Positions 1-4,169 of a stretch of 4,325 nt of DNA are shown here, piece after piece (position 1 is the stretch's first letter; each line of letters begins with the position of its first letter). The notes below the pieces were generated by a model. That model saw nothing but the letters and a program-made list of their open reading frames with translations, made no database searches and was not told the origin of the DNA. The DNA is from a virus. Taxonomy: Duplodnaviria > Heunggongvirae > Uroviricota > Caudoviricetes. Location: IMG/VR virus record IMGVR_UViG_2534681939_000025; one strand, 5' to 3'. The position numbers and the translations under genes were made by a program.

Positions 1-80
1 TGGACAGTTGGCGTTGATGCGCAGGCGCTTACGACCAGCGGCAACATCAGCACGCAGAGTTTCATTTTCAGCTCTCGCAT
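1..80 (-). CDS. Rz1: Rz1 o-spanin (outer-membrane lipoprotein spanin subunit), embedded in the +1 frame of Rz, 5' partial
   Basis: ATG at 80 (second ATG at 65) in the +1 frame relative to Rz, preceded by GAGGGAA 7 nt upstream. Translation [26 protein letters not shown]... has a lipoprotein signal and lipobox (VSAC), and resembles lambda Rz1 (MLKLKMMLCVMMLPLVV.GC). Embedded out-of-frame position inside Rz is the classic arrangement. Confidence 0.75.
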
Positions 81-300
81 CGGCTAATTCCCTCGAGTAT
101 CTGGCATCAAGTGCAGCGACATCACGCTGGCGTACCTGCATATCAGTAATTGTCACGTTCGCCAGCTTCAGCTCACTGGCTTTTTTATCGCGTTGCGCTT
201 TGTAGGTAATGGCGTTATCGCGGTAATGATTCAGCCCCAGACTAAGCACACCACAGGCTACCAGCAGGACAATAATCACCACACACAGAACACGGTTCAT
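1..300 (-). CDS. Rz: Rz i-spanin (inner-membrane spanin subunit), 5' partial: start ATG at 300, gene runs off the window at position 1
   Basis: Not in the ORF track because no stop lies in the window. Reverse-strand translation from ATG 300 gives [100 protein letters not shown]... The block [56 protein letters not shown] matches phage lambda Rz as I recall it. It has an N-terminal signal-anchor helix and a strong SD (GAGGGGGA) 1-8 nt upstream of the ATG. Confidence 0.9.
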
Positions 301-307
301 ATCCCCC

Positions 308-439
308 TCACCCCACCAGCCATGACAAAGTTAAGACGCGCCAGGCAGTGGAAAAGCAAATAGCAACCAGCATTAGTGAAAATGAAATGCCGACGATTAC
401 ACAGAGGATCTTCGCCAGCGTTATGAGCTTGTCTGACAT
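308..439 (-). CDS. Hypothetical 43-aa hydrophobic membrane peptide, translationally coupled to Rz
   Basis: ATG at 439 preceded by SD AGAGGA (6 nt spacer). Translation [43 protein letters not shown] is almost entirely one or two transmembrane helices. Stop TGA at 308-310 sits inside the Rz ribosome-binding site, 8 nt before the Rz ATG. Not in the ORF track (below its size cut-off); no family recognised. Confidence 0.45.
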
Positions 440-451
440 GCTTAATCCTCT

Positions 452-634
452 TCACGATTTCAACGCAATGACCAGTTTTGCCAGCCCATACAGCATCGGA
501 GACACAGCAATACCGACCGCCACCCACTTAATAGCAAAAGCCAGCGCTCTGCTGACGTCATCAGTTACAGGCGCTTTCAGTTCAAGGCCGTTTTTCATAG
601 TCAATCTCAACAGAATTCGTTTATACTTTCCCAT
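452..634 (-). CDS. Hypothetical 60-aa small membrane protein (basic N-terminus, one C-terminal TM helix)
   Basis: Internal ATG at 634 of track ORF 452..712; the track's upstream extension would translate through the terminator hairpin, so 634 is the more likely start. SD AGGGAGAA 1-8 nt upstream of the ATG. Translation MGKYKRILLRLTMKNGLELKAPVTDDVSRALAFAIKWVAVGIAVSPMLYGLAKLVIALKS. Stop TGA at 452-454 overlaps the SD of the next ORF (start 439). Contains rare codons (AGA, CGA) typical of acquired genes. Confidence 0.45.
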   Translation of the reverse strand: MGKYKRILLRLTMKNGLELKAPVTDDVSRALAFAIKWVAVGIAVSPMLYGLAKLVIALKS

Positions 635-667
635 GTTCTCCCTTGCCTTACTCAAGGTCAGAAACAC

Positions 668-706
668 AAAACCCCGTTTGCGGCCAACAAACGGGGTTTT
701 ACTTTT
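668..706. terminator. Bidirectional rho-independent terminator hairpin between endolysin and the downstream small ORFs
   Basis: Perfect 9-bp stem CCCCGTTTG (672-680) / CAAACGGGG (688-696) with a 7-nt loop, flanked by AAAA (668-671) and TTTT (697-700). On the plus strand it is followed by TTTTACTTTTATT, on the minus strand by TTTTGTGTTTC. Confidence 0.6.
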
Positions 707-789
707 ATTCACTTAGTTTTTGCCAGTTCGCAGGATTTCGTGTTATCCGCCAGTGTGAGCAAACCGCATTTTTCAGCAAAATATTCTGC

Positions 790-1323
790 TTATCTGTCAA
801 TTCCCCAGCACGCCAGCGCGCTCTCCTGGTCACGCCGTGAAACCTGACCGTAGCAGTTGTTTGAGCGAATACGGCAGTCTCTGCCACCGTCCTTAATCCA
901 CCAGCGAATCGCCTCACACGCACCTTTGCGATCTCCTGCATTAATCCGTCTGTAAAACGTCGACGGGAAACACTTACCGGGACCAATGTTGTACGGACAG
1001 AATGACGCGATCCCCGCTTTCTGGGGTTCGGTCAGCGGTACTTTAATATTGCGCTCCACCCACTCCAGCGCCTTATCACGTTCAATGGCGTTAACCTGGT
1101 CGCATTTTTCCTTCGACAACTTCATGCCCGGAACGACAGGTTTACCATCCACCAGGATGGCACCGCGGCAGATGGTCCAGATACCCGCACCATCACGGTA
1201 TGCCGTGGTGTGGTTACCTTCTTTTTCGTCAAGAAACTGGTCGAGGATTTCAGGCGCAGACGCACCTGCACCAATCAGCGCCAGAACGGCAGCCGACAGG
1301 CCGTATCTGATTTTTGCGTTCAT
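790..1323 (-). CDS. R: Phage endolysin, glycoside hydrolase family 24 lysozyme with N-terminal signal-anchor-release (SAR) domain, 177 aa
   Basis: Track ORF 790..1323. Catalytic-region motif EG....Y.D..G.WT.C.G (KEGNHTTAYRDGAGIWTICRGA) and RRINAGDRKGACEAIRWW resemble phage 21 R21 and T4-type lysozymes as I recall them. N-terminus MNAKIRYGLSAAVLALIGAGASAPEIL is a Gly/Ala-rich weakly hydrophobic helix typical of SAR endolysins. Lies downstream of a pinholin gene and upstream of Rz. Confidence 0.92.
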   Translation of the reverse strand: MNAKIRYGLSAAVLALIGAGASAPEILDQFLDEKEGNHTTAYRDGAGIWTICRGAILVDGKPVVPGMKLSKEKCDQVNAIERDKALEWVERNIKVPLTEPQKAGIASFCPYNIGPGKCFPSTFYRRINAGDRKGACEAIRWWIKDGGRDCRIRSNNCYGQVSRRDQESALACWGIDR

Positions 1324-1373: not shown

Positions 1374-1652
1374 TCAGGCCAGCGGTGGAGTCTTCAGAGA
1401 ACCCGTAATTATTCCCGGTAGTTTTCCTCTGTAGGTTATCAACACATCCTGCGCCTCTAAAATTACGGGGCGCTTTTCCGGCAACGGACCATCCCCTTCA
1501 CATAACCCGGCAGCAACATCCATGAAAAACTGCTTCGCCTGCTTTTTCGCCTCAGCTTCGTAAAACTCCAGCGTGGCACCTTCAGTACGGTCAAGACTAA
1601 TCGCCACATCTGGCAACAACAGTGACGGATACCCACCAATTTCCAGTGCCAC
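1374..1652 (-). CDS. Hypothetical acidic soluble protein (92 codons from GTG) between holin and endolysin; start uncertain
   Basis: Track ORF 1374..1652, whose first codon is GTG, not ATG. It fills the 400-bp gap between holin stop and endolysin start. It is in the same frame as the holin, and the 22 codons between the holin TAA (1722-1724) and this GTG contain no stop and no canonical start. SD is weak. Some lambdoid prophages carry a small ORF in this position (I recall ydfR in Qin), but homology cannot be confirmed here. Confidence 0.35.
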   Translation of the reverse strand: MALEIGGYPSLLLPDVAISLDRTEGATLEFYEAEAKKQAKQFFMDVAAGLCEGDGPLPEKRPVILEAQDVLITYRGKLPGIITGSLKTPPLA

Positions 1653-1721
1653 AGTAACAGTAATCTTATCCGGGTAATTATTTATCCCTTTAACACCCAG
1701 TTCGTATTTTTCTTCATCGCT

Positions 1722-2370: not shown

Positions 2371-3855
2371 TTATGCTGCCGGTGCATTTATCTCCAGCAC
2401 CAGACTTTCTATCTCAACGCCATACGCTGCATTTTTTGTAACATCCGTCAGCGTCAGCGCATTCAGTCCCAGTGTCATACTGTCTTTTATAACCTGGAAT
2501 GCCGGGCCAGCCACTCCATTCAGTTTCGGAGTAACCGTGGCACTGCCGGCGGTGAACACCAGCTCCAGCGTCTGCCAGTCGTTACCGTAATCGCCGAACT
2601 CCCCCAGCTTCGTGTTTCCGGCTTTCCTGTGATGCATCAGATTCACTCTGCCGTCAGTGGTCTGAGTGAAGTACGACATCAGGAACGGATTACCGGTACC
2701 CGTCATCGCCACACCATCAGGAACGGGAGCATCCGTATACAGATAAATCCCCAGCCCGAACTGATTGTTGGTCAGTGCGCCTGACAGGCGGAACTTACAG
2801 GTCAGTCTGCCGCCCTGTGTCAGCAGGGTAATTGCGTCATCCACCGGATGCGTCAGGGACCAGGTTTTATTGCTCTGCTTGGTGATCTTAAATACACCAT
2901 CTGACAACTGAATTCCGCCATCCTTAATGCTCCAGCCCTGCGCAGCAGCCTCTCCGGCTGCCGGCAGCAGGGAGATTGTGCGAACGGACGTATCTGCAGA
3001 CGGACCTGATGGCGTGTTGCCGCCGGGCGAGGGTTTGATTTCCGGTGCCTTACCACTGATGAAGGCTGAGGTGCGCCCGGCTGCGTTCAGAATAGCGGTT
3101 GCCAGACGATCCGGAATAATGCTCCTGCGCGCCCATGAACTGAAATGTGTCGGGCGGTTTGATGATACCTGGTTTCCATTCGTTCTCGATGCCGCACCGT
3201 AATATCCTGATGCCGGAATATCCGGATCTTCTGCCGGCGCGTTAGTGGCGGTATTGACGCCGTTACCGTCTGTCATGAAGGGCACAAAATAAACGCCCTC
3301 ACTCTCCCTGTTTTTATACCCGCCGTACACGGTGTCGTACTGGGTAGCGTATGTATTTTTCCAGTAATACGTCGTGTCACCACAAATCCACGGCACATCT
3401 GCAGCACTGCCACCATGGCACTGCGCGTTAAACACGGAGAGGTCAGCCCTCGGATGATTCAGCGTACTCATATCCTGCACATCATGCAGACAGTGGTCAG
3501 CCGGAATAATATCGTTATATCTGCAGGCAGCCCCGCCCGGCGTCACTGTACTGCGGCGCGCCAGCTGTTTAATGCGCGGATCCGGAGCATCGTATGAATC
3601 CGGCAGCGGAAGCCCTTCACCGTAAGCCATGGCATTGGACTGCCCGGCCAGTACGATGACGTAGTACCAATCCGGCTCAGATGAACCACCGACCACCACA
3701 TCACCTTCAACAGCAACCGCCTGCATCAGGGTATAAGGCGTAATGGCAACCGGACCACCAAACGGCTGCCAGCCCTCTTTCAGTTTGTGTGTCAGCTTTT
3801 CCGCAAGGTCTGACGGCGACGCCGCCCTGACAACATCATAATGTTTAATCGACAT
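2371..3855 (-). CDS. nanS-p: Prophage-encoded sialate O-acetylesterase, NanS-p-like (SGNH/SASA-type esterase with N-terminal DUF1737-like region and C-terminal probable carbohydrate-binding domain), 494 aa
   Basis: Track ORF 2371..3855; ATG at 3855 with SD GGGAG 7 nt upstream. GQSN esterase serine motif in VLAGQSNAMAYGEG near residue 70. The N-terminal 50 aa resemble the DUF1737 region of prophage NanS-p proteins (from memory). Position immediately upstream of the holin matches where nanS-p sits in Stx-type and other lambdoid prophages. Confidence 0.85.
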   Translation of the reverse strand: MSIKHYDVVRAASPSDLAEKLTHKLKEGWQPFGGPVAITPYTLMQAVAVEGDVVVGGSSEPDWYYVIVLAGQSNAMAYGEGLPLPDSYDAPDPRIKQLARRSTVTPGGAACRYNDIIPADHCLHDVQDMSTLNHPRADLSVFNAQCHGGSAADVPWICGDTTYYWKNTYATQYDTVYGGYKNRESEGVYFVPFMTDGNGVNTATNAPAEDPDIPASGYYGAASRTNGNQVSSNRPTHFSSWARRSIIPDRLATAILNAAGRTSAFISGKAPEIKPSPGGNTPSGPSADTSVRTISLLPAAGEAAAQGWSIKDGGIQLSDGVFKITKQSNKTWSLTHPVDDAITLLTQGGRLTCKFRLSGALTNNQFGLGIYLYTDAPVPDGVAMTGTGNPFLMSYFTQTTDGRVNLMHHRKAGNTKLGEFGDYGNDWQTLELVFTAGSATVTPKLNGVAGPAFQVIKDSMTLGLNALTLTDVTKNAAYGVEIESLVLEINAPAA

Positions 3856-3968: not shown

Positions 3969-4169
3969 GAAAATAAAGGGATAACGATGATAGTTTGAGA
4001 AAAACAGAAATAACACTTTTGTGGCAAAGCATGGTGCCGGGTGCCTCCCGGTGAATTCAGTATCAGCACCTGAATCCGCGATTACCCCATATACCTGCTT
4101 GCTGATCGCCCCACCGCACAGGGGGATTCACCATGCAGAAGTGTTTTTAATAAACAGCAAACAAAAAAA

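Follow-up and report, generated by a model that had tools for sequence, protein, structure and literature searches.

Two small genes for predicted single-helix membrane proteins on a mobile module in the lysis cassettes of enterobacterial prophages

Lysis by phages of Gram-negative bacteria is considered well understood as the work of holin, endolysin, and spanin. The recent additions to this scheme, releasin and disruptin, came from unexplained small genes of the kind described here, and phage P2 carries an antiholin gene, lysA, between its endolysin gene K and its spanin genes lysB and lysC. Here, we describe two small open reading frames (ORFs), ORF1 and ORF2, located between a lysozyme gene and the spanin gene Rz on a stretch of 4,325 nucleotides (nt), hereafter the window, from the Caudoviricetes record IMGVR_UViG_2534681939_000025 of IMG/VR. 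Three described systems frame the comparison. The releasin gp25 of phage Mu (DUF2730) is a protein of 99 amino acids (aa) with N-out/C-in topology and a 73-aa acidic cytoplasmic domain (PMC9239132). Inner-membrane spanins (i-spanins) need a long periplasmic coiled-coil domain, as in the 117-aa PseT.3 of phage T4 and in lambda Rz, which has two coiled-coil domains (PMC6139136). Morons are accessory genes inserted between conserved phage genes and flanked by their own promoter and terminator (Juhala et al. 2000, cited in PMC4104026).

We find that ORF1 and ORF2 are genuine genes under purifying selection, and that the hairpin preceding them, ORF1, and, where present, ORF2 make up a module that is mobile and common to unrelated lysis cassettes. 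The genes and junctions concerned are the following, where SD denotes a Shine-Dalgarno sequence and SAR signal-anchor-release.

1323..790, minus strand: phage-21-type lysozyme gene, 177 aa, with a SAR-like N-terminus (PF00959, E=1e-24; phrog_7 endolysin)
713..789, minus strand: conserved non-coding leader past the lysozyme stop, with the core GGCGGATAACACGAAATCC at 751..733
660..712, both strands: A-run, GC-rich stem-loop (668-700), and T-run, intrinsic-terminator-like on both strands by terminator scan and folding; left end of the mobile module
635..659, minus strand: ORF1 initiation region, in which, by sequence and fold, a small stem CCUUG/CAAGG partly masks the SD AAGGGAG (644..638)
634..452, minus strand: ORF1, 60 aa, ATG 634..632, TGA 454..452 (WP_001303555.1; phrog_1115, E=6.6e-42, residues 1-60)
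440..454, minus strand: ORF1 TGA (454..452) abutting the ORF2 SD AGAGGA (451..446), with 6 nt from SD to ORF2 ATG
439..308, minus strand: ORF2, 43 aa, ATG 439..437, TGA 310..308 (WP_001280929.1; phrog_4906, E=7.3e-24, residues 1-43)
298..312, minus strand: ORF2 TGA inside the Rz SD (GAGGGGGA), with 7 nt between the stop and the Rz ATG (300..298)
1..300, minus strand: Rz i-spanin gene, first 100 codons, ATG 300..298, exiting the window (PF03245, E=4.4e-24; phrog_13, E=2e-48)

The gap between the lysozyme gene and Rz measures 489 nt and holds the hairpin (700..668), ORF1, and ORF2, all on the minus strand. An initial annotation of this DNA had estimated the gap at about 490 bp, with a terminator hairpin and two small ORFs at 308-634; its coordinates, its peptide lengths (60 and 43 aa), and its coupling geometry were all exact. 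It had also labeled the upstream gene a SAR endolysin, a label consistent with the match of lysozyme residues 9-174 to the structures of phage 21 lysozyme (PDB 3hde and 3hdf) and of RrrD (4zpu).

Several lines of evidence establish ORF1 and ORF2 as genes. The NCBI Prokaryotic Genome Annotation Pipeline (PGAP) calls both as hypothetical proteins, under the accessions listed above, in an O157:H7 genome that is identical to the window over 250-760, and both peptides match PHROG profiles over their full length (phrog_1115 for ORF1; phrog_4906 for ORF2), families of unknown function, with phrog_4493 and phrog_3246 to be listed beside phrog_1115. Among 80 IMG/VR loci collected using the ORF2 alignment, the 43-codon ORF2 frame is kept in 79, the one remaining copy having no stop. 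In haplotypes from Shiga toxin (Stx) phages, the codon aligned with the first ORF2 codon is ATA and the start is an ATG one codon upstream, giving a 44-aa product that is annotated as such in phage PA8. Nei-Gojobori ratios of nonsynonymous to synonymous substitution (dN/dS) are 0.21 for ORF1 (11 unique haplotypes) and 0.29 for ORF2 (16 unique haplotypes), and variable sites are in excess at third codon positions (7/3/12 at the three positions in ORF1, 14/10/24 in ORF2). The two remaining sense frames have dN/dS values of 0.9-2.0 and contain internal stops, so that on the sense strand a low dN/dS and an absence of internal stops coincide only in the called frames. The co-phased antisense frame also has a low dN/dS (0.31-0.35) and no stops, an expected artifact because its wobble positions are shared with the sense frame. 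We examined and rejected a plus-strand ORF of 122 aa at 348..716, antisense to ORF2, ORF1, and the hairpin: a 2-nt indel breaks its frame in other loci, and we judge it an artifact of hydrophobic coding on the opposite strand, its low dN/dS coming from the same wobble sharing.

There is also weak translation evidence for an ORF2 homologue. A ribosome-profiling study of E. coli O157:H7 Sakai (Huecker et al. 2017, PMC5597208) counted XECs191 among its translated novel genes, with a transcriptome value of 30.0 reads per kilobase per million (RPKM) in LB, a translatome RPKM of 12.6, a ribosome coverage value (RCV) of 0.43, and a coverage of 0.55 (PMC5597208 S2 table), and was predicted to be an inner-membrane protein with one transmembrane (TM) helix (PMC5597208). 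This gene, ECs_1966, is the ORF2 homologue of Sakai prophage Sp10, where it lies between an antirepressor gene and Rz. The view that the two ORFs are real, conserved genes is thus borne out by the PGAP calls, the PHROG matches, the kept frames, and the synonymous/nonsynonymous comparison proposed in the initial annotation, which indicates protein-coding selection in the called frames.

Each ORF is predicted to encode a single-pass inner-membrane mini-protein. In ORF1, residues 1-12 form a basic N-terminal extension and approximately residues 30-58 a single long hydrophobic helix; its AlphaFold2 (AF2) model contains helices at 3-15 and 22-59 with a predicted local distance difference test score (pLDDT) of 75. 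The ORF2 model is one continuous helix over residues 2-42 (pLDDT 90) with no soluble domain. Kyte-Doolittle maxima are 1.9 for ORF1 and 2.86 for ORF2, and hydropathy and the modeled single helices agree with the earlier description of both products as membrane peptides. By the positive-inside rule, ORF2 is predicted to be N-in/C-out with a tail of ~10 aa. Its 27 N-terminal residues are near-invariant from E. coli through Cronobacter.

The start of ORF1 may be read in two ways. The first ATG (Met1) is preceded by AAGGGAG(AAC), in which AAGGGAG serves as SD; the stem that partly masks it is conserved in homologues, with a variable loop. A second in-frame ATG, Met13, lies at 598..596 and would give a 48-aa form; it is preceded by GAGA or GAGG, 6 nt, and then the ATG. 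Its initiation region, GAGGTTGACYATG, shows nucleotide-level conservation in distant homologues, and Met13 is where many database entries begin. The extension GKYKRILLRLT contributes four basic residues to the Met1 form, and ORF1 homologues at tail-fibre loci carry an acidic extension instead.

The geometry of the chain suits translational coupling at both junctions, that is, between the ORF1 stop and the ORF2 SD and between the ORF2 stop and the Rz SD. The first junction is kept in homologues, with a 2-nt indel. At the second, GTGAGGGGGAT leads from the ORF2 stop into the Rz ATG, and Rz has a strong SD of its own in the window. The spacing from the ORF2 stop to Rz is 7 or 11 nt in the IMG/VR loci, and 4 nt separate ORF2 from a lipoprotein gene in Citrobacter. 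Where ORF1-family genes stand directly 5' of the last lysis gene, 1 nt (phages GER2 and phiSTEC1575-Stx2k) or 10 nt (Salmonella locus L086) separates them from its ATG. One ORF2 allele group has its Rz ATG 11 nt past the ORF2 stop with no well-placed SD, which fits a dependence on coupling. The earlier description of a coupled chain stands, and the chain lies inside the late lysis operon, given the shared strand and the stop/SD overlaps. Salmonella and GER2 versions (L086 ~2960-3003; L092 ~1470-1497) were also seen to contain a 27-34-nt insert that creates an 8-codon leader ORF (MCREVYSL or MGREVLSL) behind a conserved SD, and the leader TGA overlaps a GTG start of ORF1 (GTGA), adding a further coupling link.

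The hairpin at 700..668 has a stem of 13-15 bp, with folding energies of -21.3 kcal/mol on the minus strand and -18.7 kcal/mol on the plus strand and z-scores of about -4.3 to -4.5 (-4.5 on the minus strand). Folding energies of homologous hairpins from five diverged loci lie between -19 and -23 kcal/mol (z=-4 to -5), and their inner stems vary (GUUUG/CAAAC, GAUUG/CAGUC, and others). Because these inner stems differ in sequence at similar folding energy, the structure itself is what is conserved. The hairpin precedes ORF1-family genes both in lysis cassettes and in tail-fibre loci. The non-coding leader with GGCGGATAACACGAAATCC is conserved from E. coli to Salmonella locus L086 and is missing from the Citrobacter copy of the module; the block 713-789 contains no promoter found by our scan and matches no Rfam family. 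The promoter scan likewise detected no sigma-70-like sense promoter from the lysozyme stop to ORF1, a TTGACA at the lysozyme stop lacking a usable -10 element.

A candidate transcription unit runs in the opposite direction.

598..712, plus strand: hypothetical antisense unit, with a -35-like TAGTCA (598-603), an 18-nt spacer, and a -10-like TATACT (622-627)

Its predicted product is an RNA of ~75 nt, extending from ~634 to the hairpin and T-run (668-712), that would be complementary to the SD and start codon of ORF1 and folds at -24.6 kcal/mol (z=-4.2). The promoter matches at 9 of 12 positions, and the scan found 4 such matches against 2.8 expected, which is chance level on its own. Every E. 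coli, Salmonella, and Citrobacter copy has TATACT unchanged, as does metagenomic locus L094, and the distant homologue L095 lacks it; a -35-like hexamer is retained at 17-18 nt in GER2 (TGGACA), L090 (TTGGCC), and L094 (TGGTCA). The block from the hairpin to codon 18 differs at 1 of 48 positions in Salmonella L086, compared with 33 of 126 in the rest of ORF1, and at 11 of 48 compared with 59 of 114 in L094. We treat the plus-strand antisense RNA as a hypothesis, drawn from these sequence patterns.

Comparing across loci the region that separates the endolysin gene from the lysis gene after it, we distinguish at least these arrangements, in which EPEC denotes enteropathogenic E. coli and IS insertion sequence.

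(a) hairpin, ORF1, ORF2, Rz: as in the window
(b) antirepressor gene (in some cases with IS elements), ORF2 (44 aa), Rz: Stx phages and Sakai Sp10
(c) ORF1, ORF2, 311-aa DNA methyltransferase gene, Rz: L025 2640-3575, and also L026-L028
(d) HP1-type holin gene, 161-aa lysozyme gene, hairpin, ORF1, Rz, no ORF2: Salmonella
(e) hairpin, 31-aa TM ORF, ORF2, C-terminal fragment of ORF1, 28-aa ORF1-like paralogue, Rz: phage vB_EcoS-705R7 and EPEC E2348/69
(f) hairpin, 8-codon leader, ORF1 variant ending in RWW, Rz: phage GER2
(g) PF16931 and PF05449 holin genes, GH108 endolysin gene, hairpin, ORF1 and/or ORF2, 60-aa lipoprotein gene (phrog_7528), no Rz called: Citrobacter and Cronobacter
(h) PF16931/PF05449 holin genes, M15 peptidase endolysin gene, hairpin, ORF1 variant, lipoprotein gene: phiSTEC1575-Stx2k

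The slot that follows the endolysin gene and precedes the last lysis gene thus recurs in at least four cassette types: S21-type holin with phage-21-type lysozyme and Rz; HP1-type holin with the 161-aa lysozyme and Rz; PF16931 and PF05449 holins with GH108 endolysin and lipoprotein; and the same holins with M15 endolysin and lipoprotein. The GH108 and M15 endolysins that accompany the module have no N-terminal hydrophobic segment, so the module does not require a pinholin/SAR pair. We rejected the idea that ORF1 and ORF2 form an obligate pair, since ORF2 occurs without ORF1 behind the antirepressor gene in Stx phages and ORF1 occurs without ORF2 in Salmonella. The two genes are separable, and the mobile unit begins at the hairpin. 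The insertion of the L025 methyltransferase gene (DPPY motif) is precise: the gene follows the ORF2 stop, precedes the Rz start, and ends in a stop codon that overlaps the Rz ATG. PGAP annotates three of the mini-ORFs of arrangement (e) in E2348/69.

Several further observations concern these variants. Arrays of up to four consecutive mini-ORFs, each with a single hydrophobic helix, run from hairpin to Rz (L005 600-1180; L102 1501-1849, from E. coli E2348/69). Their 31-aa family (MISQLPNWKF...) has a weak phrog_6632 match, and the 28-aa ORF1-like paralogue ends in IRWW with its stop overlapping the Rz ATG. Chimeric gene calls also occur in public databases (P0181, P0185, P0189, P0193, P0217): proteins of 80-83 aa that join the ORF2 N-terminus, through a frameshifted segment, to the C-terminus of ORF1, and, from a 554-bp contig, a single fusion of holin to ORF1; such entries probably represent the type (e) arrangement or assembly or annotation artifacts, not real two-helix proteins. 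The 60-aa lipoprotein of phrog_7528, a family of unknown function, has a lipobox LLVGC and three more cysteines (L099 2640-2822, L097 2640-2822, L101 2501-2683, L100 2995-3183). Its gene fills the Rz/Rz1 slot in holin and GH108 or M15 cassettes with no called Rz (PF03245), including that of the Stx2e phage phiP27, where the annotation at the site (L32) lies in a different frame. We consider this lipoprotein a candidate for the outer-membrane-step protein of such "spanin-less" cassettes.

DNA of ORF2 is present in 1750 of 5426 complete E. coli genomes (~32%), at 4657 places, with a maximum of 11 per genome in enterohemorrhagic E. coli (EHEC); among the records listed, its annotation is "hypothetical protein." The ORF1-ORF2 arrangement, taken as coverage of at least 80% of the 250-760 query, occurs in 959 genomes. 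Among 50,697 phage records, 671 have an Rz of this family, 276 have ORF2, and 14 have ORF1. The 276 ORF2 records are mostly Stx1- or Stx2-converting phages (including phi24B, Min27, vB_EcoS_P27, PA2, and P13374), and plaque-forming or inducible phages are among the carriers of the module (including PhiR12_x, phi24B, Min27, vB_EcoS_P27, P13374). Homologues are limited to the Enterobacteriaceae (Escherichia, Shigella, Salmonella, Citrobacter, Cronobacter). No insert lies between endolysin and Rz in lambda, phage 21, or K-12 Qin, and the genes are therefore accessory. This agrees with the earlier expectation that canonical cassettes do without them, and the synteny comparison suggested at that time resolves into an insert that is conserved across genera yet sporadic and mosaic, not universal.

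Family and literature searches placed the peptides without assigning them a role. Scans of both against Pfam, NCBIfam, and PADLOC-DB returned nothing at E<=1. An exhaustive HMMER profile search with the ORF1 alignment against 1.84 billion representatives found just 18 peptides, of 20-87 aa, and word-indexed searches for relatives returned only short hypothetical peptides from Enterobacteriaceae. Searching the main texts of the literature with peptide strings or RefSeq accessions yielded no paper; the papers retrieved on lysis cassettes and the spanin census (PMC6139136) do not mention ORF1 or ORF2, and neither the svsR paper nor Tree et al. 2014 (PMC4104026) reports a small RNA (sRNA) at their position. 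The initial annotation recognized no family. For function this holds, but as to cataloguing it does not, given phrog_1115, phrog_4906, the RefSeq WP_ entries, and Sakai ECs_1966/XECs191: the sequences are already catalogued but functionally uncharacterized.

The reading we favor, tentatively and at somewhat less than an even chance, is that ORF1 and ORF2 encode accessory inner-membrane mini-proteins of the late operon, carried on a mobile module, that tune a general membrane step of lysis. Transcription of both genes would depend entirely on Q-modified RNA polymerase passing the hairpin; late, Q-antiterminated expression is suggested because the scan detected no sense promoter from the hairpin to ORF1. 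Translation would then be chained, with the last link delivering ribosomes to Rz. The peptides would enter the inner membrane at lysis time, alongside holin, endolysin, and spanin, and may tune the timing of lysis or the hand-over to the outer-membrane step independently of the type of holin or endolysin. ORF1 may act in two forms, one from Met1 with the basic extension and one from Met13, echoing dual-start holin/antiholin genes. A number of observations weigh against this reading. ORF1 and ORF2 are dispensable for lysis in general, as lambda, phage 21, and Qin lack them. ORF1-family genes also follow tail-fibre genes as stand-alone units between hairpins, where lysis genes are absent from the vicinity. 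An antirepressor gene, IS elements, and a DNA methyltransferase gene are found at the endolysin-Rz junction as well, so that position alone may reflect a permissive insertion site. Decayed copies occur in some arrays, as in the decayed mini-ORF array of phiSTEC1589-Stx1c; the footprints on the Sakai ORF2 homologue are weak and come from uninduced cultures; and none of the 18 ORF1 relatives found by HMMER, nor any other homologue, has a known function.

Much of this would be expected if the genes were instead moron-type cargo unrelated to lysis, of use to the lysogen or to the infecting phage through, for example, superinfection exclusion or interference with a host membrane protein, at a junction that merely tolerates insertions. 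The stand-alone units lie where morons classically do, behind tail-fibre and tail-fibre-assembly genes, and the other inserts at the junction, the sporadic and mosaic distribution, the arrays of up to four mini-ORFs, the decayed copies, and the footprints in uninduced Sakai cultures all fit. Nevertheless, we rate this account as rather unlikely: there is no sense promoter found 5' of ORF1, the hairpin of the lysis-cassette copies lies upstream and not downstream, the peptides have no PADLOC match, and in all loci examined ORF2 occurs nowhere but in the interval from the endolysin gene to the last lysis gene. We also considered a unit resembling type I toxins, in which a membrane-damaging ORF1 product, perhaps with that of ORF2, would have its ribosome-binding site (RBS) masked by the cis-antisense RNA and be made only when late transcription outruns that RNA. 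The size and hydrophobicity of the peptides (43 and 60 aa, single helices) are typical of type I toxins; the hairpin, which always accompanies ORF1 and has terminator character on the plus strand too, is preceded at 35-40 nt by a plus-strand -35/-10 pair; TATACT and a -35-like hexamer persist in diverged homologues; and conservation from the hairpin to codon 18 far exceeds that in the remainder of ORF1. However, the Met13 initiation region in that same block could alone explain its conservation, the promoter match is weak and near its expected number, L095 has no TATACT, and neither a Pfam or NCBIfam toxin family nor an Rfam family is matched, which leaves this a decidedly unlikely explanation. 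Of the roles named in the initial annotation, the toxic membrane peptide and the superinfection-exclusion factor are neither favored nor contradicted by the data gathered here.

If the ORFs were pure coupling devices, re-initiating ribosomes would set the dose of Rz and the peptide sequence would be irrelevant. In every arrangement, the stop of one gene does touch or overlap the SD or ATG of the gene after it, and one Rz allele group has no well-placed SD, but dN/dS values of 0.2-0.3 indicate protein-level selection, the N-terminal 27 residues of ORF2 hardly vary from E. coli to Cronobacter, the Rz of the window has its own strong SD, and ORF2 is retained where the methyltransferase gene separates it from Rz or where an unrelated lipoprotein gene comes next; we hold such a device to be very unlikely. 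A regulator specific to the pinholin/SAR pathway, acting either in trans as an antiholin on the S21-type pinholin or in the manner of a releasin on the SAR lysozyme, appears slightly less probable again. The window and most E. coli loci are indeed cassettes of S21-type holin and phage-21-type lysozyme, and the ORF1 helix segment KWVAVGIAVS locally resembles TM domain 2 (TMD2) of pinholins, with a shuffle z of 4-5 against the window's own holin. Against it, the peptides match no DUF2730 or holin Pfam profile, the topology of gp25 is opposite and includes the 73-aa cytoplasmic domain (PMC9239132), and the module also occurs with other holin families and beside non-SAR GH108 and M15 endolysins, which argues against a releasin or pinholin-specific role and weakens the initial suggestion of one. 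Homology of the ORF1 helix to pinholin TMD2 was itself rejected, with a Smith-Waterman shuffle z of 2 against canonical S21 and an hhalign probability of 11% over 13 columns, and ORF2 gave no similarity signal when compared with Rz, holin, the lysozyme N-terminus, and ORF1. Least probable, and disfavored, is that the ORFs are spurious or decaying and without function: they are very short, some arrays contain frameshifted remnants, and many database entries are chimeric or mis-started, yet selection is frame specific and purifying, the sequences are conserved from Escherichia to Salmonella, Citrobacter, and Cronobacter with 4657 copies in 1750 genomes, and ribosome footprints are present in Sakai.

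The rest of the window contains the remainder of the cassette and a match to a small-RNA family.

3855..2371, minus strand: gene for a DUF1737/DUF6645 protein; the gene at the same position in related records is annotated "SASA family carbohydrate esterase"
ending at 1722, minus strand: S21-type class II holin gene (PF04971)
1374-1718, minus strand: YdfR/DUF1327 gene between the holin and lysozyme genes (PF07041, E=1.3e-29)
3993-4165, minus strand: Rfam match to the sRNA family STnc100 (RF02076) over the full length of the model, scoring 100.9 bits (gathering score 47; E=5.7e-22)

The YdfR/DUF1327 gene is a further uncharacterized accessory gene of the cassette, which only part of the related loci have. 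The Rfam scan of the window found no family within 300-800, and its sole gathering-level match is STnc100, which sits in the late region upstream of the DUF1737/DUF6645 gene. Two short plus-strand units, at ~2100-2230 and ~2270-2370, lie antisense to the lysis operon between the DUF1737/DUF6645 and holin genes. Both combine a perfect TTGACA with an A-rich, TG-extended -10-like element and end in a GC hairpin and T-run; the terminator scan flags the terminator of the second (2349-2365), and the predicted RNAs are ~60-85 nt. The Rfam scan gave no match for either unit. By position and size, they recall the AgvB/AsxR class of convergent short anti-sRNA genes, known from the moron site of EHEC prophages (Tree et al. 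2014, PMC4104026). Elsewhere, Cronobacter prophages (L096-L098 1-859) carry genes like those for the A and B subunits of heat-labile enterotoxin (LT; PF01375 and PF06453 LT-IIB) immediately 5' of the lysis cassette, the same position that the Stx genes hold in Stx phages.

The timing of lysis governs toxin release in Stx phages. If either peptide tunes lysis or gates translation of Rz, it would represent a new and medically relevant control point; if the peptides are instead morons or toxin-like, a widespread family would be added to the prophage repertoire of small membrane proteins. We speculate further, as an unlikely possibility, that a variable array of one to four single-helix mini-proteins constitutes, with the hairpin and the candidate antisense RNA, an unrecognized mobile "lysis lock" or timer module that stands before the outer-membrane step of unrelated cassettes and, being present in most Stx phages, influences the timing or amount of Shiga toxin release.

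How ORF1 and ORF2 compare with described systems depends on the feature considered. Like P2 LysA and the antiholins lambda S107 and phage 21 S71, they encode small (here predicted) inner-membrane proteins within a lysis cassette that are non-essential for lysis, and they share with the lysA gene its place between endolysin and spanin genes. ORF1 may further resemble antiholins in its two in-frame starts, the longer predicted form having extra basic residues. However, antiholins and holins of those families have two to four helices, compared with one each in ORF1 and ORF2, and there is no sequence relationship; with regard to class II holins and pinholins specifically (Phage_holin_2_1), the peptides have no profile match and a single helix each. 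With Mu gp25, they share being single-pass membrane proteins encoded near a SAR endolysin gene. Unlike gp25, they have no DUF2730 profile match and no soluble domain, the ORF1 helix is C-terminal where a releasin has an N-terminal TMD and a cytoplasmic domain of ~70 aa, and the module accompanies non-SAR endolysins also.

As to two-component spanins (Rz/Rz1; T4 PseT.3/PseT.2), ORF2 holds the slot directly 5' of the gene for the outer-membrane step, and in Citrobacter and Cronobacter it directly precedes the 60-aa lipoprotein gene, as an i-spanin gene precedes the gene for an outer-membrane spanin (o-spanin). ORF2 is nonetheless not an i-spanin, because its predicted periplasmic tail has only ~10 residues, and in E. 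coli it precedes a complete Rz. Type I toxins (Hok, TisB, Ibs, Ldr) are likewise hydrophobic single-helix peptides of 40-60 aa, and the RBS of ORF1 lies under a candidate antisense RNA, but no toxin family is matched and ORF1 and ORF2 are located inside a co-directional operon instead of a stand-alone locus. With regard to morons, ORF1 and ORF2 are accessory, sporadic, and mobile, and hairpins flank the unit in tail-fibre loci, but the lysis-cassette copies have no detected sense promoter and an upstream hairpin. The resemblances to antiholins and P2 LysA, to dual-start holin genes, and to type I toxins are each partial.

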